From IMG/VR virus record IMGVR_UViG_3300037467_001416: a stretch of DNA of 64,000 nucleotides; one strand, written 5' to 3'. This stretch comes from an uncultured virus (IMG/VR IMGVR_UViG_3300037467_001416) (taxonomy: Duplodnaviria > Heunggongvirae > Uroviricota > Caudoviricetes). Position 1 is the stretch's first letter. Each line of letters starts with the position of its first letter. The notes under the pieces are model-generated. The model was not told the DNA's origin and ran no database searches. It was given only the letters and a program-made list of their open reading frames with translations. The position numbers and the translations under genes are program-made. Below, one piece after another: positions 16,134 through 57,481 of this stretch.

Positions 16134-16514
16134 ATGTACTTAGTCGCTCGCAGTCAGCTCAAGGACTTTCTCTGTGGTGGGTACTTTGATCCGGACGGTA
16201 CCAATCGCGAGGAGATGGTCGCCTTCGCGGATAAGATCTTGGAGCACTGCCCCACGGATCTCAAGCTGTTCCTGTTCAGCGATCACGAGAACGGCGACGA
16301 TCCGGAGATCCACTGGCCTTTCAGGCAGCGGCTCGAGGAGCTCATTCCTCTAACGTATGCGGCGGGTGGTTCCGGCTACTACGGCCTGATCGCAGAGCGC
16401 CGCGAGGACGTGGAGGACGGGGAGATCCTCTATCAGTGCTACCTCGGCGGCTCCGCGGGCAACAGCGCTCCAGGGTTCGTCGTTACGCCCCTCGCGCAGT
16501 GGCAGGCTGAGTAA
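16134..16514 (+). CDS. Hypothetical early protein
   Basis: Preceded by the repeated promoter/leader cassette. Confidence 0.65.
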   Translation: MYLVARSQLKDFLCGGYFDPDGTNREEMVAFADKILEHCPTDLKLFLFSDHENGDDPEIHWPFRQRLEELIPLTYAAGGSGYYGLIAERREDVEDGEILYQCYLGGSAGNSAPGFVVTPLAQWQAE

Positions 16515-16617
16515 TCCACACCTGCAACAAACTCGCTAGCCGAGCAGTCCACGCTTGGCTAGCGAGCGCCGCGACTGCATACTGCAAGGGTAGGCAGGCA
16601 GTAGCAGGAGATAAGCC

Positions 16618-16884
16618 GTGCAGTTCGCCATCAACACCGACGAGGGCTTGGTCTTCGAGGAGCAGAATGGCCGCTTCTTCCATCGGCGCTTCGTCACTCA
16701 CGAGTATCGCGCGGTGCAGGCCATCCTCGCTCGTCGCGTCGCCGAGGATGTGGAGAACTTCGCCAGAGCCAATCGTCACCTGACGTCCTCGCCGGAGGAG
16801 ATCGCTTCGCTGGAGCTCAGCGAAGTCTACGATCCGTACGAGGGCTTCCACGATCCGGACGACTTTCCTCCGGTGTGGCAGTAA
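16618..16884 (+). CDS. Acidic hypothetical early protein
   Basis: Preceded by the repeated cassette; acidic C-terminus. Confidence 0.65.
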   Translation: MQFAINTDEGLVFEEQNGRFFHRRFVTHEYRAVQAILARRVAEDVENFARANRHLTSSPEEIASLELSEVYDPYEGFHDPDDFPPVWQ

Positions 16885-16968
16885 GATCAGTCCACGGGAG
16901 CAGCATACGCTTGGCGCCGGACCTCGCCGAGCGTATGCTGCAAGGGTATGCAGCAGTAGGAGGTCTAA

Positions 16969-17310
16969 ATGTCCAAGGCAGAGCTCACGCCCGAGCAGGT
17001 CGCGCACTGCAACTCAGTCTTCGCCAAGGGCGGCTTCGTCCCTCGTCGTAAGGGCCAGCGGTTCGCGCGCGACCTCTATCCGGCGTACGACTTCTACAAT
17101 CAACAGGGTGTTCCACATCCCACCGTGGAAAATCCAGTCGTCGCCAAGGTGGAGTTCCTCGGCACCTTCGTCGGGTATGGTCATTACGGCGATCTCTGCA
17201 ACTATCGCGCCTTCGCCATCACCGCCACCGACGGCTCGCGTTGGGCGGGCTACTCAAAGGACGAGGACTCCTATGTCTTGTGTCAAATGCACTCCTTCCG
17301 CGCGGCGTAA
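16969..17310 (+). CDS. Hypothetical early protein
   Basis: Preceded by the repeated cassette; AGGAGG RBS. Confidence 0.65.
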   Translation: MSKAELTPEQVAHCNSVFAKGGFVPRRKGQRFARDLYPAYDFYNQQGVPHPTVENPVVAKVEFLGTFVGYGHYGDLCNYRAFAITATDGSRWAGYSKDEDSYVLCQMHSFRAA

Positions 17311-17456
17311 GGCCGTGCGGCGCAACCCGGTCGCCATGTCCCTGCGGTCGCCTAGCAAGCGGCCTCAGGTCGTGCCCGACAAGCGGAGTAGTCTGCGTTT
17401 GCGCGCCGAGCGACGCGACCGTACACTGCAAGGGTAGGCAGCAGAAGGAGGTCACA

Positions 17457-17801
17457 ATGCATCTCGTAGATCGCCCCGCCATTGGCGAGTCCAACGGTCT
17501 TCCGTACGGCTCGGGCAATGAGTATCACGCTCAGTGGTCGGGTGCGCGCACCGTCGACTGGAGCGAGCCTCACCTGCGCGTGACTCGGCTCCGCCTGCTG
17601 AGTGATCCCGGCTTCCCGGCGTGGGACGTCTCGTACTGTCACGGCATCCTGTGTCACACAGGCGAGCACGTGATGGTGGAGCTTCCGTTCTCGCAGCTTC
17701 CCAAGCGCGGGTTTCGCAAGGCGATCGTCGCTCACGCCATTCGCGACAAGGTGTACGCTCGCGGCCTCGGCGTCCTGGATAATATCAGCACTCTATGCTG
17801 A
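17457..17801 (+). CDS. Hypothetical early protein
   Basis: Preceded by the repeated cassette; RVTRLRLLSDPGFPAWDVSYCHG. Confidence 0.65.
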   Translation: MHLVDRPAIGESNGLPYGSGNEYHAQWSGARTVDWSEPHLRVTRLRLLSDPGFPAWDVSYCHGILCHTGEHVMVELPFSQLPKRGFRKAIVAHAIRDKVYARGLGVLDNISTLC

Positions 17802-17820
17802 GTCGGTAGGAGTAATCCAA

Positions 17821-18105
17821 ATGTCAGTCCATAAGACCAATCCGTTCCATCGCCACGACGAGGACGACAACGAGTTCGTCGGCACCTTCAGCCTCGGCGG
17901 AAAGTCGCACGACGTCTGGATCGAACGTCTGGAGGGCGAGGAGGAAGACACGATCATCGTGCGCTACGGTGACGAGCCTGCCGAGTGTTGGGCCTTTCCT
18001 CACAGCGTCATGGTTCGGACCTTCCGACGCTTTCCGGACGAGGAGAAGTTCGGTCGCGCTCTCTCGCTCTATGAGGCCTTTCAGAACGGGAGGGCGTCGC
18101 TGTGA
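17821..18105 (+). CDS. Hypothetical early protein
   Basis: AGGAG RBS; HD...FVG...HDVW...IIVRYGDE pattern. Confidence 0.65.
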   Translation: MSVHKTNPFHRHDEDDNEFVGTFSLGGKSHDVWIERLEGEEEDTIIVRYGDEPAECWAFPHSVMVRTFRRFPDEEKFGRALSLYEAFQNGRASL

Positions 18106-18368
18106 GGACGAGAGGAGAGTCGCAGGAAGAAGGTCGCCAGATCGTTCTGATTGGCTTCAGCGAGGAGTGGCATCCCTATCGCCGGACGATCACGAACATC
18201 TATCAGTTGAGTAAGAGCGATCGCTACGACTACTACTTCTGGAAGAGCCTCATACGAGAGCAGAACGAGAGGACGATGGTCACGAGCACAGATCGCCTGA
18301 GAGAGACGCTCGCCGACGGACGCCTCCGGTGGAGCAATCCCGGCTTGGCGGGCGAGGGCCACGACTGA
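18102..18368 (+). CDS. Hypothetical protein
   Basis: GTGA overlap with the upstream stop; GGAGG RBS. Confidence 0.5.
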   Translation: MRTRGESQEEGRQIVLIGFSEEWHPYRRTITNIYQLSKSDRYDYYFWKSLIREQNERTMVTSTDRLRETLADGRLRWSNPGLAGEGHD

Positions 18369-18403
18369 ATACTACATTTGCAGGCAAGCAAAGGAGATCT
18401 GCA

Positions 18404-18685
18404 ATGCGCGTCACTCGTCACAGCACCGGCCTTCTGGGCCTCGTCGCCGTCGTCGCTCTGTCGGCTGGCTTCCTCATGGGCTCACAGCTCCAGCCCGCTC
18501 CGCTCAACAGCGAGCTCGCCGACGCTCAGGTCGTCGCGCAGGATCGCGACGTGCGTTGGGTTGCCTACGGCTGCGGAGACGACAACGCCACGCTGCTCAC
18601 GCGCGAGATGCCGAACGTCATGGAATGTCGTCAGGTTCGTCGGCTCAGCGAGATCGCAGAGTTCCCCGTTCCTCCTCGGCAGTGA
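18404..18685 (+). CDS. Membrane-anchored hypothetical protein
   Basis: AAGGAG RBS; LLGLVAVVALSAGFLMG hydrophobic helix. Confidence 0.6.
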   Translation: MRVTRHSTGLLGLVAVVALSAGFLMGSQLQPAPLNSELADAQVVAQDRDVRWVAYGCGDDNATLLTREMPNVMECRQVRRLSEIAEFPVPPRQ

Positions 18686-18715
18686 GGTCGCCGGACGTCG
18701 TCGTTTGACGGGATG

Positions 18716-18802
18716 GATCTGATAAGGGATCTGGATCACGATCTGGATCTGGACGAAGATCACGCTACAAACGTAGCGCCGATCAGGATCTTGACGAAGA
18801 TC
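18716..18802. repeat. GATC array (9 sites in 87 bp, mostly 6-bp phased)
   Basis: GATC at 18716, 18728, 18734, 18740, 18746, 18758, 18781, 18787, 18799. Confidence 0.9.
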
Positions 18803-19010
18803 TGGTCGTGTCGCTCCACACTCCTGCTCCAAGGCGTGGTACCTTGGCCTCTGTAACGCCTTGGCGCGTAAAACACTCAGTTTGGCGCAAAAGCGCCTTG
18901 GCGGGCGCGCCTGGCGCAAATGCCATGTTGCCATGTTGCCATGCTGCGCGCATATGTAATGCCGCCGCTGGCAATGCCGCCAAGCGGCCTAACGCAAAGG
19001 CAAACACAAC

Positions 19011-19532
19011 ATGGCACGTAACAACAACAACACCGCCAACACCGCCAACAATGCCGCGCCCGTAAAGGTGGCGCCCATGCTGCGCGCCGCCGCTATTATT
19101 GGGCGCGCGGGCATTGCCGCCGCGCCAGCGGTTGCGGCAAAGCTTGGCAATGCGCCAGCTAGCGCCAAGCGCTACGGCGCGGCTGTTAACAGCCTAACGC
19201 CTAGCTTTGCCAACGCTACCTTTACGCTAACGGCGCTAGGCAAGGCGGCTGTTGGCGTAGCGGGCGGCATTGGGCGCAACGGCCAAGCAACGGCTATGGG
19301 TTTAACAGCCGTTGCGCTTGCCAACGCAGCCAACGGCGGCACTAGCGCAACGGGCGCGGCCATTGTTGCCGCCATACTTGGCAACCCGCAGCTTATGGCC
19401 GCAATGGGCGCAACCAAGGCGCTAGGCGTGCACGTAACGCCTAACAGCGCAACAGCGGCCAAATGGGCGCAAGGTTACGTTAACGGGCTTTGCCGCCCAC
19501 AGCATGGCCTAGCTAGCAAGGCGCTAGCCTAG
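19011..19532 (+). CDS. Basic Ala-rich protein with no Asp/Glu (173 aa)
   Basis: Intact ORF; leader CCTAACGCAAAGG-N10-ATG; TTGCCA-N17-CATATG promoter candidate at 18928-18956; hairpin after the stop. Confidence 0.75.
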   Translation: MARNNNNTANTANNAAPVKVAPMLRAAAIIGRAGIAAAPAVAAKLGNAPASAKRYGAAVNSLTPSFANATFTLTALGKAAVGVAGGIGRNGQATAMGLTAVALANAANGGTSATGAAIVAAILGNPQLMAAMGATKALGVHVTPNSATAAKWAQGYVNGLCRPQHGLASKALA

Positions 19533-19600
19533 CCTAACGGGCGCGGCGGCAATGGTTGCCGCCGCGCCAACCCGCCACCTAACGCAAAGGTAACAAACCT

Positions 19601-19834
19601 ATGTTTACGCCAACCCAAGCCCAACCCGCCGCCATGCCGCGCCAAGCCAGTTACATGCGCGCCGCCCTTTGGCACTATGCGCCCGCGCCCTATGCGCCGC
19701 GCCGCTACGGCCAAGCGCGCAGCATGGCCGCGCAGCTTGCCAATTATAGCCCAAAGCTGCGCGCCGCTTACTTGGCGCGGCAATGGGCGCGCATTGCTAA
19801 CGGCGTTGCGCCGCATTGGCCGCGCGCCCGCTAA
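19601..19834 (+). CDS. Basic aromatic-rich protein with no Asp/Glu (77 aa)
   Basis: Same leader CCTAACGCAAAGG-N10-ATG; followed by a 13-bp hairpin. Confidence 0.65.
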   Translation: MFTPTQAQPAAMPRQASYMRAALWHYAPAPYAPRRYGQARSMAAQLANYSPKLRAAYLARQWARIANGVAPHWPRAR

Positions 19835-19857
19835 ACGCGCGCCAAGCCATGCCAACG

Positions 19858-19894
19858 TGCCGCCCGCTACATGGTAGCGGGCGGCATTGCTTTG
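19858..19894 (+). terminator. Terminator-like hairpin closing the island operon
   Basis: TGCCGCCCGCTAC-ATG-GTAGCGGGCGGCA followed by TTGCTTTG. Confidence 0.6.
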
Positions 19895-20059
19895 CGCCCT
19901 AGCAGGCGTTTGCGGGCGGCTACGGCCAAGGCGCTATGGTACCTTGGCCCCATATACGCCCGCCCACCCACGCGGGCCTCAGTGAGCGCAATCTTAAATT
20001 CTCGACTCGAAAATTCGAAATATATTGTCAGTCTCTTCTCGCCGTGCTACCGCTGTCGG

Positions 20060-20635
20060 ATGCGAATCCTCGTAGCTTGTGAGTTCTCCGGCATAGTTCG
20101 CGACGCCTTCCTCTCCAGAGGCCACGACGCCTGGAGCTGTGACCTGTCACCGACGGAGTCTCCCGGACCCCACATCCAGAACGACGTCCTCAACCATCTC
20201 AACGACTCCTGGGATCTCATGATCGCCCATCCGCCGTGCACCTATCTCTGCTCGGCCGGATACCATCGTCGTCTCAAGGACCCGACCCGCATCGCCAAGA
20301 CCCGCGACGCCATCCAATTCTTCCTCGCCCTCTGGAACGCTCCCATCCAGCGCATCTGCATAGAGAATCCGCCCGGAGTCATACGACGATTCACGAACAT
20401 CCCTCATCATCAGACGATTCATCCCTGGCAGTTCGGCGAGCCCTACGCCAAGACATTCACTCTGCGCCTCAAGAACCTGAACCCTCTCCGTCACACCCGC
20501 TACATCCCTCCACCCTACGTCAATCGCGACGAGCTCGGTCGCGACCCAACCCCAGAATCTATCGACCGCTGGAAGATTCGCTCACGCTTCTTTCCAGGCA
20601 TCGCAGAGGCGATGGCAGATCGTTGGGGATCCTAG
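20060..20635 (+). CDS. Phage-type short DNA (cytosine-5) methyltransferase-like protein
   Basis: MRILVACEFSG (motif I-like), DLMIAHPPC (catalytic PC), CIENP (motif VI), GIAEAMA (motif X-like). Confidence 0.75.
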   Translation: MRILVACEFSGIVRDAFLSRGHDAWSCDLSPTESPGPHIQNDVLNHLNDSWDLMIAHPPCTYLCSAGYHRRLKDPTRIAKTRDAIQFFLALWNAPIQRICIENPPGVIRRFTNIPHHQTIHPWQFGEPYAKTFTLRLKNLNPLRHTRYIPPPYVNRDELGRDPTPESIDRWKIRSRFFPGIAEAMADRWGS

Positions 20636-20722
20636 CACCGCCGCGCAGTAGTCACTTGTCCCTCCGCCCACATCCGTGCTACTCCACCTCCGAACATATA
20701 CACTCGGCAGGAATCCTCCCAC

Positions 20723-22354
20723 GTGCCAGATCCAGCGACCTCCGCCTACGCTCGTACACAGAGGATCGGTACGCCGAGGCCCCACATCCCATACTCGCTC
20801 GCTCTTCCCGGCATTGAGATTCCGGTAAGCGCCGACTACTACAACAAATTCGACATGTGGTCCACCATCCGGGACTGCTACGACGGCGAGGCTACCATCA
20901 AGGCCGGGAGAGAGACCTACCTCCCAAAGCTAGCCGCTCACAAGGCCGACGAGTACGACGTCTATCGTCGGAGAGCCTACTTCTACAACGCCGTGCGGCG
21001 CACCCATCGCGGACTCATGGGCTCGATCTTCCGCAAGCCTGTCGAGATCACTCTCCCAGACGCGATGAAGAGCAAGATCAAGCTCGGGCGCATCACGCAG
21101 GACGCCAAGCCCTTCGCAGAGTTCTGCCGGACCCTCGTTCACGAGGTACTCCTCACAGGACGATTCGGTGTGTTGGCGGACTTCAAGGGTTCCAACTGGC
21201 AGTCGCCGTATCTCGCCGGTTATCTCGCAGAGAACGTCTTCTCGTGGCGCACTCGGGAGTGGCAGGATCGGGAGATCGTCGATCGCGTTGTGTTGCTCGA
21301 GCAGGAGCAGATGACGACGGAGTACGCCTCCGAGACTCAGCTCCTGGTTAGAGTTCTCCGGCTGGACGAGGTGAACGGTAAGCTCGTCTACTCGCAGACG
21401 GAGATTCGCCCCTCGATCACCGACGCTAATCCCGACAAGCCAATGATCAGGCAGGTGCCGATCTCGGTTCGCGGCGGAAGGCAGCTCGACTACATTCCGT
21501 TCGTATTCGTGAACGCGACGAACACGTCCTATCAGATCGGTCCCGCGCCGCTGGAGGACATCGCCACCATCAATATCTCGCACTACCAGAGCACCGCGCA
21601 CCTGGAGCACGGACGATTCTACGCGGGGATGCCGACTTACGTCACCTCCGGTCCTGGAGGAGGTGAGCCGGGTCTTCCCAACGGATTGTCGGATCCGAGT
21701 CCTCTCACGGTTGGTCCGAGCAACGTCTGGGAGCTTGAGGAGAACTCCAAGGCTTGGTTGTTGGAGTTCACAGGTCACGGGCTCACCTTCCTCGAGAATG
21801 CGGTGGACTCCAAGCAGCTTCAGATGCAGTCGCTGGGCGGGCGTCTGATCAGCTCCACGCGTCGCGCAGCAGCGCTCAGCTCCGAGGCGTGGCAGCTCAT
21901 GGAGACGGGCGACGAGGCCACGCTGATGGACGTCGCGCTCACCGCCGACTACGCCATGTCCACCGCTGTCGCGTACATGGGCGACATCATGGGGCTGGTG
22001 CCGGATCTAGAGGATCACGGCGTCCTCGTGGAGTTCAACAAGGAGTTCGTCAGCTCCGAGCTCACAGGTCGCGAGCTGAGAGCACTCCAGGCTCTGCGCG
22101 AGCGTGGTCACATCCCCGAGGACGTGATGTACTACGCGCTTCGCGAGGTCGGCGTCATCCCGATCGAGTACACGCTCGAGGACTTCAAGAAGCTCATGGG
22201 ACAGAAGGATCAGCAGTACGAGCCTCCCGCCGCGCCAGCCTCGGGAGGTCTGGACACCGGTCCCGCCGGAAGTCAGCCGGGAGTGAGGCCGCAGCCGAAG
22301 CCGTCGCCCGCCAACGCGCCACCGACTCCACGCAACGCTCCGCCGGAGGGATGA
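20723..22354 (+). CDS. Portal protein (DUF4055-like)
   Basis: 543 aa; YLPK...Y..RAYFYNAVRRT..GLMGSIFRKP, GRFGVLADF, IPFVF, PLEDIATINISHYQSTA motifs; first gene of the head module. Confidence 0.85.
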   Translation: MPDPATSAYARTQRIGTPRPHIPYSLALPGIEIPVSADYYNKFDMWSTIRDCYDGEATIKAGRETYLPKLAAHKADEYDVYRRRAYFYNAVRRTHRGLMGSIFRKPVEITLPDAMKSKIKLGRITQDAKPFAEFCRTLVHEVLLTGRFGVLADFKGSNWQSPYLAGYLAENVFSWRTREWQDREIVDRVVLLEQEQMTTEYASETQLLVRVLRLDEVNGKLVYSQTEIRPSITDANPDKPMIRQVPISVRGGRQLDYIPFVFVNATNTSYQIGPAPLEDIATINISHYQSTAHLEHGRFYAGMPTYVTSGPGGGEPGLPNGLSDPSPLTVGPSNVWELEENSKAWLLEFTGHGLTFLENAVDSKQLQMQSLGGRLISSTRRAAALSSEAWQLMETGDEATLMDVALTADYAMSTAVAYMGDIMGLVPDLEDHGVLVEFNKEFVSSELTGRELRALQALRERGHIPEDVMYYALREVGVIPIEYTLEDFKKLMGQKDQQYEPPAAPASGGLDTGPAGSQPGVRPQPKPSPANAPPTPRNAPPEG

Positions 22355-22851
22355 TGCTTGCGAACTATGTCACAGACGTTCCGCCCGGTTTCGAGGGTCA
22401 GCCGCTAGTCTATATGATGACGCTGTTCTCGCTACTGATGATCACCCTGCTGACACTGGAGTGGTTCTGGCGCATCGCGTGGGGTGCGTACGAGAGACCC
22501 TTCGGCATCAAGCATCCCGTCACGGTACTGAGGGTGATTCTTCTGCTCGTGGGGATCAGTGTCCTTCTCAGAGTGGGGCCGGACATCTTCCGCTTCGCGT
22601 TGTGGCGCACACTCTCGCCGCAGGCGAGATTCATGGCCTTCGAGGTAGATCACTGGCTCGACATGTTCTCGTTCATCCCGTGGAGTCTCGCGTGGCTCGC
22701 TGGTTATCTCGGTATGCCGATGATGCACTTCCAGTTAGAGAAGAGACCACCGCCGATTCATCTGTGGCCGACCAAGGAACAGCTCAAGCGCCCTCTCAAG
22801 ATCGGGATGGCGGTTCTTCTAATCGCAGCAGCGATCACGTACTACGGGTGA
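22351..22851 (+). CDS. Multi-pass membrane protein
   Basis: ATGATG start overlapping the portal stop; about 4 hydrophobic helices. Confidence 0.65.
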   Translation: MMLANYVTDVPPGFEGQPLVYMMTLFSLLMITLLTLEWFWRIAWGAYERPFGIKHPVTVLRVILLLVGISVLLRVGPDIFRFALWRTLSPQARFMAFEVDHWLDMFSFIPWSLAWLAGYLGMPMMHFQLEKRPPPIHLWPTKEQLKRPLKIGMAVLLIAAAITYYG

Positions 22852-49839: not shown

Positions 49840-51572
49840 CGATACAAGTTGTCTTTGAGTCAGACGAGAAGAAAGCGTGGCTAGACGGTCGGGTTCCACC
49901 GCACGTCTTTAACGCTCTCTCAGAGCTTCCAGGCCGCAAGCGGTACGTACAGGGTAAGCCTTTCATTGAGCTTTCGAGGAGCAATCTAGAGTTCCTCGAC
50001 ACGCGTCTAGAGGGCGTCACTTGGCGCGGCCCCGCTGCTACACTGGTGGAACAATTTCGGCGTATGCGCGAGCAGGAGCGTGAGACTCGTAACGCAAAGT
50101 GGATTGAGCCTGTTGGCTTCGAGTTCCCGTATAAGCACAAGCCCTATCAGCATCAACTCAAGGCTAACATTCTCGCCAGAGGGAAGATCGCCTTCGGGTA
50201 CTTCATGGAGCAGGGCACCGGAAAGACCAAGACCCTGTTGGACGACGCCGCCGACATTTTTCTCAACGGTGGTGAGAACGGCAAGATCGACACGTTATTG
50301 ATCGTCGCCCCCAACGGCGTCCATGCTCAGTGGATAAACGAACAAGTTCCGGAACATTTAAGCCCCTCTGTGCCTTGGGCGGGCGGGTACACCGTTGCAG
50401 CCCCAACCCATGAAGAGGCTCTCCGACTGTCCAAAGCGCGGTATTTTAAGGATGGTCTCAGGATCATTGCAATCCACATCGACATGATGAGTCACAAGAG
50501 CGGTGAGGAGCTCCTGCAAGAGCTTCTTCTCTCTTCTAGAGCCATGCTGGTCGTGGACGAGAGTAGCCGCATAAAAGACTCCAGCTCAAAGAGAACTAAG
50601 ACTCTTCTGAAGCTAGGTAAGCTAGCCAAGTATCGACGCATTCTCACAGGAACTCCAATCTCCCAGGGCGTGGAGGATCTTTATTCACAGTTCTACTTCC
50701 TGGACCCTCATATCCTGGGCTACAGCAGTTTCTACGCCTTCCGGAATCACTTCTGTCGCATGGGCGGTTTTCAGAACAAGAAGATCGTCGGTTACGTAAA
50801 TGAGGAAGAACTTAAACGCAAGATCGACTCGTACACGTACCGAGTTCTCAAGGAGGATTGCCTGGATCTTCCTGCCAAGAACTTCATTCGTGTAGAAGTT
50901 CCGTTCACTGAAGAGCAGAGTCGCGTATATGCTCAGATGAAGAAGGACTTCTTCCTCGACCTTGACGCCGGTATTCTCACCGCGCGTCTCGCCATCACTC
51001 GTCTCATTCGTCTTCAGCAACTCATAGGTGGGTTCATCCACAAGAGAGCGAAGAAGGACGAGAACGGAAAGATAGTTGATCCTGAACTGTATCAGGAGTT
51101 CCCGAATCGTCGAGTGGAGCGCACCGTAGAGATTATCAAGGAAGCTCGCGGGAAGGTTATCGTCTGGATTAAGTTCGAGGGTGACTATCGTCTTCTGAGC
51201 AAGGCACTAACCGAGGCTGGCATCTCCTGGATAGACTACGTTGGTCGGACCAAAGACAAGTTGACGAATCTTAAGAAGTTTCAGACAGACGACAATATCA
51301 AGGTCTTTCTCTCCACTCCTAAGTCCGGGGGTATTGGTCTCAACCTGACTGTCGCCAGCGAGGTCATTTGGTACAGCCGAGACTTCTCCCTTGAGAACGA
51401 ACTGCAAGCCAACGACAGATGCCATCGCATCGGACAACACTTTCCCGTGAACTATCACTATCTTATCACCCCGCGCTCGGTGGACGAGAGAATCGACAAG
51501 GTACTCAAGTCCAAGGGCGCGATCGCCGAGAATCTAATTGACATAAGGGATCTCTTTGCCGATGACGAGTAA
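49836..51572 (+). CDS. SF2 (SNF2-like) helicase
   Basis: FMEQGTGKT (Walker A), VVDESS (Walker B), ILTGTP, GGIGLNL, QANDRCHRIGQ. Confidence 0.9.
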   Translation: MTIQVVFESDEKKAWLDGRVPPHVFNALSELPGRKRYVQGKPFIELSRSNLEFLDTRLEGVTWRGPAATLVEQFRRMREQERETRNAKWIEPVGFEFPYKHKPYQHQLKANILARGKIAFGYFMEQGTGKTKTLLDDAADIFLNGGENGKIDTLLIVAPNGVHAQWINEQVPEHLSPSVPWAGGYTVAAPTHEEALRLSKARYFKDGLRIIAIHIDMMSHKSGEELLQELLLSSRAMLVVDESSRIKDSSSKRTKTLLKLGKLAKYRRILTGTPISQGVEDLYSQFYFLDPHILGYSSFYAFRNHFCRMGGFQNKKIVGYVNEEELKRKIDSYTYRVLKEDCLDLPAKNFIRVEVPFTEEQSRVYAQMKKDFFLDLDAGILTARLAITRLIRLQQLIGGFIHKRAKKDENGKIVDPELYQEFPNRRVERTVEIIKEARGKVIVWIKFEGDYRLLSKALTEAGISWIDYVGRTKDKLTNLKKFQTDDNIKVFLSTPKSGGIGLNLTVASEVIWYSRDFSLENELQANDRCHRIGQHFPVNYHYLITPRSVDERIDKVLKSKGAIAENLIDIRDLFADDE

Positions 51573-51921
51573 GGTCTTTGTCCTACAGGCCGTCCGGTTT
51601 CAGCCCGACGTCAGCCCCGCCGCCGTATATGGCGAGATCCGCTTTGTGCTCTCTGCTGGAGATCGGACCTCGGCTAATCCTGAGCTCTCCATAGAGCGTC
51701 TCAGGAGAGCACTCTCGGAGTTTGATCCCCGAACGGACTTCATCGTCTGGGCGGGTGGAGATCCTCTCAGCGCCATTGTGACCGGCATGGTGATGCTTGA
51801 CCTAGGTATCACGAAGTTCCGCTACTTGCGCTTTGAGAAAAACCGCAATACAAAGCATGGAGAACCCGTAACGGGTTTCTATTCTCCCGTAGAAGTCAGG
51901 CTGGAAGAGGAACAAGACTAA
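51562..51921 (+). CDS. Hypothetical protein
   Basis: DVSPAAVYGEI...DFIVWAGGDP; replication-module context. Confidence 0.6.
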   Translation: MTSKVFVLQAVRFQPDVSPAAVYGEIRFVLSAGDRTSANPELSIERLRRALSEFDPRTDFIVWAGGDPLSAIVTGMVMLDLGITKFRYLRFEKNRNTKHGEPVTGFYSPVEVRLEEEQD

Positions 51922-52487
51922 TGGTCGAAGAGACGCAGACGGAGCAGAGTGACGTAGACTTCTTCGAGGAGGCCGACACCAGTACCGGCTCTGAGCGCTT
52001 TAAGGCTCATATTACCAATCTCGCGAGAGAGTATCGTCTTCTCGAGGGAGACATCGCCGAGCTACAGAATAAAATCAAAGATCTCACTCGCCGGAAGGTC
52101 GAGATAGAGACACAGAAGTTGCCCGAGTTGCTGAAGCAGGCAGGCGTCCGCGAGATCACTACGCTGGAGGGTCTCAAGGTCTCAACCAAATACGTCGTCG
52201 GATCAATTCCGCCACAGTCCAAGGAGCAAGCCTACGAGTGGCTCGACTCGCACGGACATAGCGATATTATCAAGCGTAATCTAGCCCTTCAGTTCAGCAA
52301 GGGTGACACGAAGCAGGCCGAGTTAGCACGTGAAACGCTCGCCAAGATGGGCTTCGACCCTACCATCAAGCTGGACGTGCACCCTCAAACCTTTATGGCA
52401 TTCGCGCGCGAGCAGATTCAGAATGGCGTCATGCTCCCACTTGAGAAGTGGGGAGTCTGGTTTGGCGATAAGGCAGTCATTAAGTAA
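51921..52487 (+). CDS. Replication-module protein with coiled coil
   Basis: LPELL...G...AYEWL..HGH.DIIK...VHPQT..AF pattern seen next to phage SSB genes. Confidence 0.6.
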   Translation: MVEETQTEQSDVDFFEEADTSTGSERFKAHITNLAREYRLLEGDIAELQNKIKDLTRRKVEIETQKLPELLKQAGVREITTLEGLKVSTKYVVGSIPPQSKEQAYEWLDSHGHSDIIKRNLALQFSKGDTKQAELARETLAKMGFDPTIKLDVHPQTFMAFAREQIQNGVMLPLEKWGVWFGDKAVIK

Positions 52488-52587
52488 GTCTGCCGAGTTA
52501 TTCTAGAGTAAAATATCCCTTGCGTTGTGAGTTAACGCGCTTATAGTGAAGCGTCTGGTGGCAAGCCAGTGAACAGAGGAGAGCCTA

Positions 52588-53451
52588 ATGGCCGAAGCAA
52601 AGAAGAAAGCTGAAGAAGAAAAGAGTGAGGCACCTGCGGCTGGCGGTACCAATCTCACAACGACCAAGAACGAGTCAACCGATTTGGTTGCGGCGGACGA
52701 CGACTTCTTCGCAGAAGCCGGTGCGGGTCTGGACGATTTCCAGCAGTCCGACTTTCTCATCCCGTATGTCCGCATCCTGCAAGCGCTCTCGAAGGAGCTT
52801 CAGCGTGGTCACGCTAAGTTTCTTCCTAACGCCGGTCAGGGCATGTTCGTCAACTCTGCGACGCGGAAGCTCATCAACGGCGAGACGGGTTTTCTCGCCG
52901 TTCCGGTCGGCTTTAGTCACCGATACATGGCGTGGCGACCGAATAACGCCGGTCCTGCCTACGACATGGGTGACGATCCCTCGAAGTTCAACGCGGCGAC
53001 GCCGGACGACAAGGGTAAGCGCTACGACGAGCAGGGCAATGAGCTCACCGATGCTCTTCAGTACTTCGTCGTCCTGGTGAATCCGGAGACGCAGGAATGG
53101 GAGGCAGCGGTTCTGAACTTCTCTGGGGTTCAGGCTCGCAAGGGTCGCGGGTGGGCAACCACGATCAACAATCGCATGGAGCGATTTCCGGTAGGCCACG
53201 CCAAGGCCGGGACTCTCTTCCGTCCTGCGATGTGGTTCTACTCGTACAAGATTACCACGATTCCAGAGTCCAACGACAAGGGTTCGTGGTACGGGTTCCT
53301 CATCGAGGAGGGGCCGAAGGTGAAGGATCTCGCAAACGGGCGCGAGATTTTCACTGCCGCCAGCGAGCTGCGTAAGCGGATCGATGCCGGCGAAGTCAAG
53401 GGTGACATGGAGCATCCCGACGACGAGCCCGGAGACGAGCAGGCGTTCTAG
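52588..53451 (+). CDS. Single-stranded DNA-binding-like protein
   Basis: DFLIPYVRILQALS...ESNDKGSWYG; acidic C-tail ending in aromatic DEPGDEQAF. Confidence 0.65.
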   Translation: MAEAKKKAEEEKSEAPAAGGTNLTTTKNESTDLVAADDDFFAEAGAGLDDFQQSDFLIPYVRILQALSKELQRGHAKFLPNAGQGMFVNSATRKLINGETGFLAVPVGFSHRYMAWRPNNAGPAYDMGDDPSKFNAATPDDKGKRYDEQGNELTDALQYFVVLVNPETQEWEAAVLNFSGVQARKGRGWATTINNRMERFPVGHAKAGTLFRPAMWFYSYKITTIPESNDKGSWYGFLIEEGPKVKDLANGREIFTAASELRKRIDAGEVKGDMEHPDDEPGDEQAF

Positions 53452-54207: not shown

Positions 54208-55101
54208 ATGAACCAAGAGATCTACGAGACTTTCGTTCACTACCTGAACGAGCGCGAAGCTATCCGGCAGAAGAGAGTTGCAGGTGAGCCAGGTCCCTGG
54301 ACCACAGATCCAATTCTCTCGCGCTACAAGTTCACAAATATTCTCCGCAAGCACGATCGCACTACGCAGTGGCTGATCCGGAATTGGTATAATCCTAATC
54401 GTGGAAATGTTCCGAAACAAGTCATGGCACTCAACTGTGCCATCGCGCGTTACTTCGGCAGCATTGAGTTTCTAGAAGACGTTGGTTTTCAATACGAGTG
54501 GAACCCAGATTTTCTCATACGTCGCGCCGGCGAGCGTCTCGCTGCCGGGAAGAAAGTCTTCACCGGAGCGTACATCATAACGAACGCGGGCAGCACAGAT
54601 CCTAAGCAGATCGTCGTCGTGTCGCAGTTTCTCACTCCGTTTCGGATGCGTCTGGACTCTGTCATCGGCATGGCTGAGCGCACGAATCGGTGGCAGGAGG
54701 TCTGTGAGCTCTTGCAGGGAATGCCCGGAATTGGTCCCTTCATGGCGAAGGAGATCGCACTGGACATGATGCTGACGCCTGTGCTCGAGAATGCTACCGA
54801 CAAGCTGACGTGGTCACCGGCTGGCCCCGGAGCTATCCGCGGTCTCAATCGTCTTCACGATCGTCCGACGCAGGCCGGGATGCCTCAGCAGAGGGCTCAG
54901 CACAAGATGCAGGCTCTTCTCGGTCGTCTCAGCATGGATCGTGCGTTCAAGGACTACATGCCTGAGATTGGTGTTCACTACGGAGTCACCGATGTTCAGT
55001 TCTCTCTGTGCGAACTGGACAAGTATCTCCGTGTGAAGAATGGCGAGGGTCGTCCACGCTCCGGCTACGACTGGCGTAAGGCAAAGCCTATAGTCCCCTG
55101 A
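54208..55101 (+). CDS. aGPT-PPlase1 / 5-hmdU DNA kinase helical-domain family protein
   Basis: EREAIRQKR..G..GPWTTDPILSRYKFTNILRKHDRTT, FTGAYII, GIGPFMA, GPGAIRGL, LCELDKYLR. Confidence 0.8.
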   Translation: MNQEIYETFVHYLNEREAIRQKRVAGEPGPWTTDPILSRYKFTNILRKHDRTTQWLIRNWYNPNRGNVPKQVMALNCAIARYFGSIEFLEDVGFQYEWNPDFLIRRAGERLAAGKKVFTGAYIITNAGSTDPKQIVVVSQFLTPFRMRLDSVIGMAERTNRWQEVCELLQGMPGIGPFMAKEIALDMMLTPVLENATDKLTWSPAGPGAIRGLNRLHDRPTQAGMPQQRAQHKMQALLGRLSMDRAFKDYMPEIGVHYGVTDVQFSLCELDKYLRVKNGEGRPRSGYDWRKAKPIVP

Positions 55102-55143: not shown

Positions 55144-55434
55144 GTGAAGCTCAGATTAGGCCCCGGACAACGCGACATACATCTCGAGGGACGGGACGGG
55201 GAGCTTCTCGTCGGTAGAGACGAGAGTGGTAAATTCGTCAACAAACTTCATCTCACGGATGCCGAGTTCTCCATGGGAGCCTCGAGATTTCCCATTCTGC
55301 GCCTTGACGTGGAGATGATCGGCTACGAGATCGAGATAGACGCCATGGAGGAAGACGTTGTCGTAGTCCTTCACCGTCATGGCATTACTCGCATAGAAGG
55401 AATTAAGAATGCAGATCTTCATCCCGACGCGTGA
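55144..55434 (+). CDS. Hypothetical protein in the modification cluster
   Basis: AGGAGG RBS; 96 aa. Confidence 0.5.
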   Translation: MKLRLGPGQRDIHLEGRDGELLVGRDESGKFVNKLHLTDAEFSMGASRFPILRLDVEMIGYEIEIDAMEEDVVVVLHRHGITRIEGIKNADLHPDA

Positions 55435-56221
55435 TCGTGTCAACGCTCAATTTACATGGGACAACCTGACGCCGGCTCTGCGGCAATGCACAACGCTGGT
55501 ATGCCCCGCGGAGGAGGTCACCGAGCATCTCGAGCGCTCTCGAAACGCAGTGGCGCGGCCCCCGGTAGGGCTGGCTGCGGTGCGGCAATGGATTGTCGAC
55601 GAGCTTGCTAGACAGGGTGAGCCGGTCATCATGCTAGACGACGATCTAGCGTTTTTCGTTCGCAAGGATCCATCCGCGCACAATCTACGTCCCGCCGGTG
55701 CCGACGTGGAGCGTATCTTTTCGAGACTTCATATTCTCGTGGCTCACAACGATTACGTCCATTCAGGATTATCGCCTAGGCAGGGAAATAATTGGGCGTA
55801 TCCTGCTACGACGCTCACTGTGGAGCGCATGAACGCGGTCCACTGCGTCTTACCTGAGGCGCTGCGGCACTACGGCATTCGCTACGACGACGTTGACATG
55901 ATGGAGGACTACCATGTCGTTCTTTCGCTTTTTGAGAAAGGTGAGAAAAACGCCGTCATTACGGATGCCGCCTGGGATCAGTGCAAGGGATCAGGAGCTC
56001 CTGGAGGCTTCAGCCACTACCGAACTAGCGAGACTCAAGCGGCGGCGGCTGAGCGTCTTGCGGAGCTCCACCCGAAAGTCGTCAAAGTCGTAGAAAAGAC
56101 ACCCAAGACGGGCAGCGGCGGCTTTTCGGGAACACGCAAGGACGTGCGCGTCCAGTGGAAGAAAGCGTACCAAACCCGCGGTCGTGAGTTCATCAATCCT
56201 AGCTTCCGGAGGGGTGCGTGA
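55409..56221 (+). CDS. GT-A glycosyltransferase, TAGT/GREB1/base-J glucosyltransferase-like
   Basis: IFIPTRDR, RQWI, IMLDDDL (DxD), EDYHVVLSL...G..N, GGFSHYRT, VRVQWKKA. Confidence 0.75.
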   Translation: MQIFIPTRDRVNAQFTWDNLTPALRQCTTLVCPAEEVTEHLERSRNAVARPPVGLAAVRQWIVDELARQGEPVIMLDDDLAFFVRKDPSAHNLRPAGADVERIFSRLHILVAHNDYVHSGLSPRQGNNWAYPATTLTVERMNAVHCVLPEALRHYGIRYDDVDMMEDYHVVLSLFEKGEKNAVITDAAWDQCKGSGAPGGFSHYRTSETQAAAAERLAELHPKVVKVVEKTPKTGSGGFSGTRKDVRVQWKKAYQTRGREFINPSFRRGA

Positions 56222-56451
56222 GAGATAAGCAAGGTCGCAGGTACGCCCGTCTGGCTGAGATCAAGGCAGGCTCCTACATCCGCGTCGACGGAGACTTTGA
56301 CTGCATGAAGAAAAACTCTCTGCGGAAGGTCTTTAGAGACCGCGAGGGGTATTACGTCGTGTGTTCTCGCGGTCGCCATCATCTGGACGGGCAGTCAGAC
56401 GGACACGGTAATCTCATCGGCATGTATCAGGAAGAGACTGAGAATGTATAG
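56218..56451 (+). CDS. Small hypothetical protein
   Basis: DGDFDCM...YYVVCSRGRHHLDGQ; coupled overlaps. Confidence 0.55.
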   Translation: MRDKQGRRYARLAEIKAGSYIRVDGDFDCMKKNSLRKVFRDREGYYVVCSRGRHHLDGQSDGHGNLIGMYQEETENV

Positions 56452-57481
56452 CTTCGAGATAGACTGCCCCAACGAGGGCTTCGGTCGTGTGATGCAAGCT
56501 CTCAAGTCGGAGGGAATCAAGACCGACAGTCGTAACGGTCCTGTCATTCGGTTCCCGAAGCCGGTGTGTCTAGAGTACGTCAATCCTCGCAGGAGACTTC
56601 TCGACCATCCTGTGCGGGACGCGAATCACTTCTTCCATCTCTTCGAGACGATGTGGATGTTCGCCGGCCTAGACACCGTAGCGCCTCTGAATCTCTACAA
56701 CAGCGGCATGAAGAATTACTCTGACGACGGAGTGACTTTCGCGGCTCCGTACGGCTTCCGTTGGCGCAGACACTTCCACTTCGATCAACTCGCGAGAGTT
56801 GTGCAGAAACTACGAAGTAATCCAGAGGATCGTCGTATCGTTCTTCAGATCTGGGACTCCCAAGAGCTAGTGAAGGATCAGGGACGTGACTTCGCCTGCA
56901 ACCAGCAGGTCTTGTTCGACACCCGTCCGAGAGAGGGCGGCTATCTTCTTGACATGACGGTGACTAATCGCAGCAACGACCTCGTCTACGGAGCTATGGG
57001 TAGTAATCTCGTTCACTTCTCACTTCTGCATGAGTACATCGCCTATCACGCAGGTCTCGAGGTCGGCACCTACTACCAGATCTCCAAGAACATGCACCTC
57101 TACCTTGAGAACGAGACCTCCCAGCGCTGCTGGGAGCACATGGACGAGTTTAAGAACTTCGCCTCTCAGAAGGCAGACTACAGTCTAACGGAACACGGTC
57201 TCACTCTCGATATGAAGATTCTAGCAGAATTCGTCAACGGAGGCGAGATTCCCGTCGGTAAATTGAGTTCTTATCTCGGCCGCGTAGTGAGACCGATTTG
57301 CGAGGCTTACAGGATATACAAGCTGAAGAGTCTCACAGGCATAGATACTCCTATAGAAGTTCGCATAGATCTTGCCATGGAGATCTTGCGAACGTGTGAG
57401 TCAGAATCCTTGCGACTGGCCTGCGTGAACTGGTTGATGGATAAGCAGGTGAAGGCTCAGAGGAAAGCTCTCGCAAGATGA
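56444..57481 (+). CDS. Thymidylate-synthase homologue, probable dUMP hydroxymethylase
   Basis: SRNGPV, RDANHFFHLFETMWM.AG, YGFRWR, DQL, catalytic C in DFACN, RSNDLVYGAMGSN (Asn at the dUMP-specificity position), NMHLY. Confidence 0.8.
   Translation: MYSFEIDCPNEGFGRVMQALKSEGIKTDSRNGPVIRFPKPVCLEYVNPRRRLLDHPVRDANHFFHLFETMWMFAGLDTVAPLNLYNSGMKNYSDDGVTFAAPYGFRWRRHFHFDQLARVVQKLRSNPEDRRIVLQIWDSQELVKDQGRDFACNQQVLFDTRPREGGYLLDMTVTNRSNDLVYGAMGSNLVHFSLLHEYIAYHAGLEVGTYYQISKNMHLYLENETSQRCWEHMDEFKNFASQKADYSLTEHGLTLDMKILAEFVNGGEIPVGKLSSYLGRVVRPICEAYRIYKLKSLTGIDTPIEVRIDLAMEILRTCESESLRLACVNWLMDKQVKAQRKALAR

Follow-up and report, generated by a model that had tools for sequence, protein, structure and literature searches.

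A conserved 1.1-kb island without GA or TC dinucleotides in uncultured Caudoviricetes that carry predicted DNA-hypermodification genes

Why would a phage in which the dinucleotides GA and TC are over-represented lack both in a single stretch of its genome? The question is raised by a 64,000-nucleotide stretch of an uncultured virus of the Caudoviricetes (IMG/VR record IMGVR_UViG_3300037467_001416; hereafter the window), in which positions 18879..19978 contain neither dinucleotide on either strand. The flanking TC lie at 18877 and 19979 and the flanking GA at 18799 and 19984, leaving a combined GA/TC gap of 1,102 bp, exactly where the first-pass annotation of this DNA had placed it. That annotation had reckoned with a hundred or more occurrences in the interval; extrapolation from the rest of the window gives ~185 GA and TC in 1,100 bp, against 0 seen (P ~1e-88). 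At a GA/TC density of 0.168 per base the longest gap expected by chance is ~50 bp (ln(10,500)/0.184), and the second-longest gap in the window is 54 bp. The longest GA/TC gap is 21.5 times the expected one; in no other dinucleotide class is this ratio above 2.2. The island lacks each of the 16 trinucleotides in which GA or TC occurs and contains all the others, from which we conclude that the word being read is a dinucleotide. The TG step is not purged (65 TG and 91 CA were counted inside), and the GC content of the island is 65%, compared to 57% elsewhere.

The rest of the genome is enriched in TC and GA (odds 1.43 and 1.26, respectively), and ~40% of all T there precedes C. This enrichment, together with the dinucleotide nature of the missing word and the 25 palindromic hexamers that persist inside the island, weakens an earlier suggestion that the island had been purged of longer host targets. 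A stronger general avoidance of palindromes within the island was also considered and rejected, as this avoidance does not differ between the island and its surroundings. A second virus record, G001, matches the window without a difference over 53,688 bases, and the joined sequence of 83,784 bp contains this single island, the next-longest gap being 54 bp there as well. The stretch is present in 11 soil or rhizosphere DNA sequencing runs, each available as contigs only, and no RNA run is listed as carrying it; in the four DNA runs that were compared, which may include the source sample, one contig each spans positions 16500-22500 at a depth of 87-370 with 0 differences. Because four separate assemblies agree, the island is not an assembly artefact, a possibility that the first-pass annotation had allowed for.

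The claim that selection here acts on DNA and not on protein was borne out by codon and junction tests on the two open reading frames (ORFs) of the island, ORF1 and ORF2. In phage reference genes TTC makes up 75% of Phe codons, ATC 63% of Ile codons and TCN 65% of Ser codons; the island genes use none of these. As had been read from the letters, Ser is encoded only by AGN (AGC eight times, AGT once, TCN never) and Phe only by TTT (three times), and the stop codons are TAG and TAA. When both genes were back-translated with phage codon usage, 59.6 ± 5.8 GA/TC were obtained (minimum 42 in 2,000 runs), and permutation of synonymous codons within both genes gave 19.6 ± 3.3 (minimum 8), compared to 0 observed. 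The ban also spans codon junctions, as previously claimed: across 248 junctions, 17.8 G|A and 11.8 T|C would be expected and none of either is found. Asp and Glu, which account for 11.8% of residues in reference genes, are absent from both island proteins. Both ORFs are preceded by the ribosome-binding site AAAGG that the first-pass annotation had noted, where 12 of 20 reference genes have GGAG, GAGG or AGGA.

One third of all possible point mutations would create GA or TC, and ORF1 of the window differs from that of the related locus L010 at 176 nucleotides, with 47 synonymous and 61 non-synonymous codon changes. The purge extends ~85 bp 5' of the −10 of a candidate promoter and 90 bp 3' of a terminator-like hairpin (both described below), and these GA/TC-free flanks point to a DNA-level rather than an RNA-level cause. 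Among distant ORF1 relatives recovered by profile search, some are acid-free, and three (P0115, P0117 and P0118) hold 5-13 Asp or Glu residues; the ORF1 family can therefore tolerate Asp and Glu, whose absence here accompanies the ban at the DNA level. No Asp- or Glu-bearing paralogue of ORF1 or ORF2 was found in the window together with G001, or in two further related records, G002 and G003. Strong purifying selection at the DNA level removes 5'-TC-3'/5'-GA-3' on both strands of the island.

Whether the gap is kept while the sequence diverges, the test that the first-pass annotation had set its own claim, could be followed in relatives. Single-protein searches of viral contigs with the portal protein and with ORF1 gave no relatives; profile searches of viral and metagenome contigs yielded 14 loci, representing 8 further lineages, with ORF1 43-80% identical. 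A desert surrounds the ORF1 homologue at all 14 loci, just upstream of structural genes. In the 13 loci with both edges the deserts measure 1.0-1.45 kb with 0-2 exceptions, and the remaining one, L020, is cut by the contig end and is GA/TC-free over at least 679 bp. Background GA/TC density at these loci is 0.13-0.16, with 0.07 on the two shortest contigs (L014 and L016). Apart from the window, five loci are free of exceptions and six have one each; the most distant, L021, has one exception and one in the boundary element described below. All five exceptions (L012:10237, L018:3265, L019:7519, L021:10525 and L021:10918) are TC on the coding strand, never GA, and their contexts differ (GTCA, CTCA, ATCC, GTCG and CTCG). 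Longer records give the same picture: G002 (91.9 kb, bounded by a 127-bp terminal repeat) and G003 (59.7 kb) contain exactly one island each, and in these two, as in the window joined with G001, the island always lies just upstream of the structural operon. The island is kept across a clade of uncultured phages with genomes of roughly 60-114 kb. At L016 an additional 56-amino-acid ORF (L016:1261-1431) stands between ORF1 and ORF2, and the island there, at 1,454 bp, is still GA/TC-free.

The island is a self-contained unit: upstream DNA leads into ORF1 and ORF2, each of which is followed by a hairpin, the second of them terminator-like, and the unit closes with an invariant boundary element (coordinates of genes and signals refer to the plus strand throughout). 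Its upstream DNA holds a tentative candidate promoter at 18928..18960, in which TTGCCA occurs twice and is followed by CATATGTAAT; the TTGCCA is kept in the four closest lineages. A repeat search identified a 16-mer leader and ribosome-binding site, CCTAACGCAAAGGCAA, at 18988..19003, 5' of ORF1, with a second copy at 19578-19593, 5' of ORF2. The 13-mer CCTAACGCAAAGG precedes each of the two ORFs, a perfect 13-bp hairpin follows each of them, and the AAGG of the ribosome-binding site is conserved in relatives. ORF1 (19011..19532) encodes 173 amino acids and ORF2 (19601..19834) 77; both products have an isoelectric point (pI) of 11.7 and contain neither Asp nor Glu. The first hairpin, with a perfect 13-bp stem, lies between the genes at 19540..19568. 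The second, also with a perfect 13-bp stem, lies at 19858..19886 and is followed by ATTGCTTTGCG; the terminator scan did not call it. As this hairpin and its TTTGC tail are kept in seven of eight aligned lineages, it is likely a terminator. Rfam matches in 18500-20300 were all below gathering scores, and no tRNA was found in the window.

Judged from their sequences, ORF1 and ORF2 are real and conserved genes. The ORF1 family comprises 80 members with 52-100% identity and contains no Asp and 2 Glu in 13,452 residues; the ORF2 family, with 26 members, has no acidic residue in 1,998 and carries an invariant HYAPxPY..RYG motif. Neither protein belongs to a family in Pfam, PHROGs or NCBIfam, and ESM Atlas gave no lead. 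ORF1 has no homologue among 50,697 phage records and no relative in one genome each of 185,579 prokaryote species. The predicted model of ORF1 (predicted local distance difference test score, pLDDT, 88.3; predicted template modelling score 0.82) had no Foldseek match at E <= 0.001 in PDB or BFVD, and on this model ORF1 is confidently predicted to adopt an all-new fold. The model of ORF2 is poor (pLDDT 66.6).

At its downstream edge the island ends in an invariant, genome-unique boundary element, ATGGTACC-N9-TATAC-N18-CCTCAGTGA, at 19936..19985. Its GGTACC, TAC and CCTCAGT are invariant in all eight lineages, and in eight of nine lineages the first TC past the island is that of CCTCAGT, 41 nucleotides after GGTACC. 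Directly upstream of the island lies a cluster of GATC sites (18716..18805); with 9 sites in 120 bp it is the densest of the 83.8-kb genome, where the runner-up has 6. A conserved TTGACGGGATGGATCTGATA motif, common to the window, L010 and L013, precedes this cluster. Should T in TC be modified, the cluster would be a patch of maximal modification on both strands adjoining a patch of none. A 13-bp direct repeat, TGGTACCTTGGCC, flanks the island of the window (18837-18860 and 19937-19960), and its left copy is absent from other lineages.

The first-pass annotation had placed modification enzymes at 54-57 kb, and this is where we found them: next to the DNA polymerase gene of the window stand genes for a 5-hydroxymethyldeoxyuridine (5-hmdU) DNA kinase (54208..55101; PF18723, E 1.3e-45, 156 bits against a cut-off of 25), a putative glycosyltransferase (55409..56221; TAGT family PF20691, E 6e-12, and phrog_842, E 1.6e-40) and a ThyA-like pyrimidine hydroxymethylase (56444..57481; PF00303, E 5e-20). 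The kinase is above the cut-off in G002 and G003 too, the glycosyltransferase is 79-84% identical in those records, and the ThyA-like gene is kept in both, such that all three genes are present in the three records long enough to tell (the window joined with G001, G002 and G003). A 49-kb fragment, G004, does not include the modification region. No transferase of the aGPT-Pplase2 type was seen. A search for the Tet/JBP family gave no match, and the control also gave none, so absence of this family is not established. Upstream of these genes, at 51556-53451, the window has an SNF2 helicase and homologues of gp32, gp33 and gp34 of cyanophage Pam3, followed by the modification and polymerase genes, an arrangement common to Pam3. 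In the part of G001 beyond the window there is a gene of the uracil-DNA glycosylase superfamily (L004:1686-2195; PF03167, E 2.9e-9), in a phage whose DNA presumably contains a uracil derivative.

These genes suggest an explanation for the island, to which we assign a probability of about one half: T in the TC context would be hypermodified in these phages, and the cassette would be kept free of the modification. The modification, its context and the purpose of the exemption are all inferred. T would be replaced by 5-hydroxymethyluracil (5-hmU), and after replication the 5-hmdU DNA kinase and the glycosyltransferase would hypermodify 5-hmU at T before C. This context would take in ~40% of all T, or roughly one site per 6 bp, and an island with no TC on either strand would be the only un-hypermodified stretch of the chromosome. 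The likely benefit would be that DNA-reading proteins can use the unit and its boundary element whatever the modification elsewhere; host RNA polymerase, regulators and perhaps ORF1 itself are candidate readers of such plain DNA. At the head of the late operon, plain DNA would then serve to express two small basic proteins (pI 11.7), of which one may bind DNA. Two observations offer weak hints in the same direction. The exceptions in relatives, all on the coding strand, fit a modified T on the template strand as the form that is never tolerated, although there are only five of them. The tetranucleotide CCGG is depleted inside the islands of the window, L010, L012, L013, L014, L018 and L021 (16 against 57.1 expected; ratio 0.28, z −5.4), the lowest of the 84 GA/TC-free classes of 4-mers, whereas 72.7 kb of flanks are at expectation (420 versus 409), a depletion that would fit unprotected DNA facing a CCGG-cutting host.

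The closest known systems are phages M6, ViI and phiW-14, which likewise have a ThyA-like hydroxymethylase, a 5-hmdU DNA kinase and a transferase beside the DNA polymerase (PMC8989533, PMC6449724). In those phages, resistant restriction sites point to hypermodification of T in TG or TC, a specificity that probably stems from the kinase (PMC6449724), and only part of T is modified (PMC8989533, PMC6449724). The phages described here differ in that only TC is purged and not TG, that the transferase is a glycosyltransferase and that the modification is deduced from genes; moreover, the available portions of those reports describe no modification-free island, and the cultured relatives we checked have none. 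A phage T-dioxygenase, 5mYOX97, prefers NTC (PMC13229309) and offers a precedent for a phage enzyme that singles out T before C after replication, albeit from another enzyme class than the modification genes found here. Base J of kinetoplastids is glycosylated 5-hmU at particular sites, tied to transcription start and stop (PMC4344527). Genes for a hydroxymethylase and a glycosyltransferase are present here as well; base J is rare and marks boundaries, whereas the putative mark of these phages would be dense everywhere and absent from one unit. The island also resembles restriction-site (palindrome) avoidance, in which a short word is lost under selection by a DNA-reading enzyme. It differs in that the word is a dinucleotide instead of 4-8 bp, in that the purge is total yet confined to 1.1 kb while the word is enriched elsewhere, and in that it leaves the encoded proteins without any Asp or Glu. 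Literature searches, which did not cover supplements, turned up no account of islands of this kind, nor of phage proteins that lack acidic residues and are tied to DNA modification, in agreement with the first-pass annotation, which knew of no system of this form.

Several points weigh against hypermodification of T in TC with one exempt cassette. No desert of any dinucleotide is present in four cultured phages with genes of the hmU pathway: Pam3, which has the kinase and was scanned whole, MP1412 (50 of 61 kb), LuckyBarnes (50 of 50.8 kb) and PhiJL001 (50 of 63.6 kb). An island thus cannot be predicted from these genes by themselves. By its sequence the ThyA-like enzyme may act on either deoxyuridine or deoxycytidine monophosphate, and the proposed TC context is drawn from the desert itself and from other phages. 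A promoter in the island, which the first-pass annotation had counted among its parts, was not recovered: a sigma-70 consensus scan of 18300-20800 gave 0 sites, and consensus scanning of the island called no promoter and no plus-strand terminator. Residues 90-173 of ORF1 are weakly winged-helix-like (best Z 4.3, many winged-helix chains at Z 3-4). The hint from CCGG is countered by M6 DNA, which is cut by HpaII and MspI, and is limited by the equal avoidance of palindromes inside and outside the island. Lastly, promoter-like sites elsewhere in the genome are TC-rich, and known hypermodified phages express early genes from modified DNA; together these leave the need for one exempt cassette unexplained.

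Among other explanations, one that we regard as unlikely, though less so than those that follow, is that some DNA-damaging activity (a nuclease, a TC-specific deaminase or an ADP-ribosyltransferase) attacks DNA at GA/TC, such that a site-free cassette survives and stays expressed. The attacker could be a host defence or the phage's own enzyme for degrading host DNA, and the cassette would encode, for example, an anti-defence or pioneer product, possibly on the first-entering DNA. The purge fits such an activity in being dinucleotide-wide, on both strands and inclusive of non-coding flanks, as does the self-contained build of the unit from upstream DNA to hairpin; known anti-restriction tactics include local early regions free of sites, as in the first-step-transfer DNA of T5. 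However, the island is mid-contig in every contig, and family scans identified no candidate enzyme. Furthermore, the other 82 kb are enriched in TC and GA, and the rest of the genome would therefore need protection at exactly these sites, which leads back to a TC-specific modification. A constraint at the RNA level, under which GA and UC are kept out of the transcript as protection from a ribonuclease or to prevent Shine-Dalgarno-like GGAG and GAGG sites, appears improbable. The AAGG ribosome-binding sites, neither GGAG nor GAGG, would agree with it, but GA and TC are both missing from the same strand, the signature of a double-strand DNA step, and the ban reaches at least 85 bp 5' of the candidate −10 and 90 bp past the terminator hairpin, the invariant element included.

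The same dinucleotide would also be purged if the modified base were the G of GA, carrying 7-deazaguanine placed by DpdA as in phages iggy and CAjan, instead of the T of TC. DpdA of iggy, which makes dPreQ0, has a strict GA motif with 97% of sites modified genome-wide, and the part of that report available mentions no GA-free island (PMC10484667). A search for TGT/DpdA matched 14 of 14 control genomes and none of G001, G002 and G003 (records that may be incomplete), and Pfam scans of all ORFs of at least 70 amino acids showed no Que genes; we consider a GA-directed DpdA very improbable in these phages. Hardly more credence can be given, and rather less, to a foreign, mobile or artefactual insert whose composition reflects origin and not selection. 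The higher GC content of the island and the TGGTACCTTGGCC repeat on either side of it in the window would suit an insert, yet position and architecture are the same in all eight other lineages, the flanking repeat is absent from them, divergence inside the island parallels that of the flanks, the four assemblies are identical, and the phage and prokaryote collections searched with ORF1 contain no homologue.

Returning to hypermodification of T in TC, a broader reading joins these observations, and we put it forward tentatively, as possible and no better than that. Motif loss would build an island of plain DNA in a densely hypermodified chromosome, and the operon on this island would be a pioneer or insensitive to modification. 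The acid-free proteins that it encodes, one of them DNA-binding, might act on the invariant edge element to control the structural (late) operon, or might let host polymerase handle modified DNA. The need would have to be strong enough to strip every Asp and Glu from two protein families and to select against even single template-strand sites. On this view, the places that a DNA mark cannot reach would determine function. If hypermodification of T in TC with an exempt cassette is correct, the target context of phage DNA hypermodification (T in TC) would be readable from sequence alone, and phages would need at least one unmodified transcription unit, which would make the cost of hypermodified DNA testable. 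The combination of a dinucleotide desert with acid-free proteins is a signature that could be used to find modified phages and their motifs in metagenomes, and the two protein families are natural folded proteins that evolved without Asp or Glu under a DNA constraint. Even if the mechanism is wrong, the infected cell contains something that reads a two-letter DNA step with near-absolute consequence, for which the literature searches gave no published account.

Downstream of the island, sequence comparison places a TC-rich, sigma-70-like promoter of the structural operon at 19996..20053, composed of AAATTC..TCGAAAATTC and TTGTCA-N16-GCTACC. It is followed by a gene for a methyltransferase-like protein of 191 amino acids (20060..20635; phrog_757) with FSG, PPC and ENP motifs and no Pfam or PDB match. 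G001, G003 and G004 carry this gene; G002, whose perfect island measures 1,070 bp, does not. The gene is dispensable for the island and was rejected as a candidate GA/TC reader on that ground. The structural module begins with the portal protein (20723..22354, identified by homology), whose nearest cultured relatives are phages of Erythrobacter, Ruegeria, Caulobacter and Mesorhizobium (30-36% identity). Promoter-like sites of the form TTGTCA-N14-19-GCTA occur in the window at 20025-20053 and 23791 and in the joined sequence at 65483 and 66403, and we take these to resemble the Caulobacter-type, alphaproteobacterial sigma-70 consensus. Together with the relatives of the portal protein, these sites suggest that the host may be an alphaproteobacterium.

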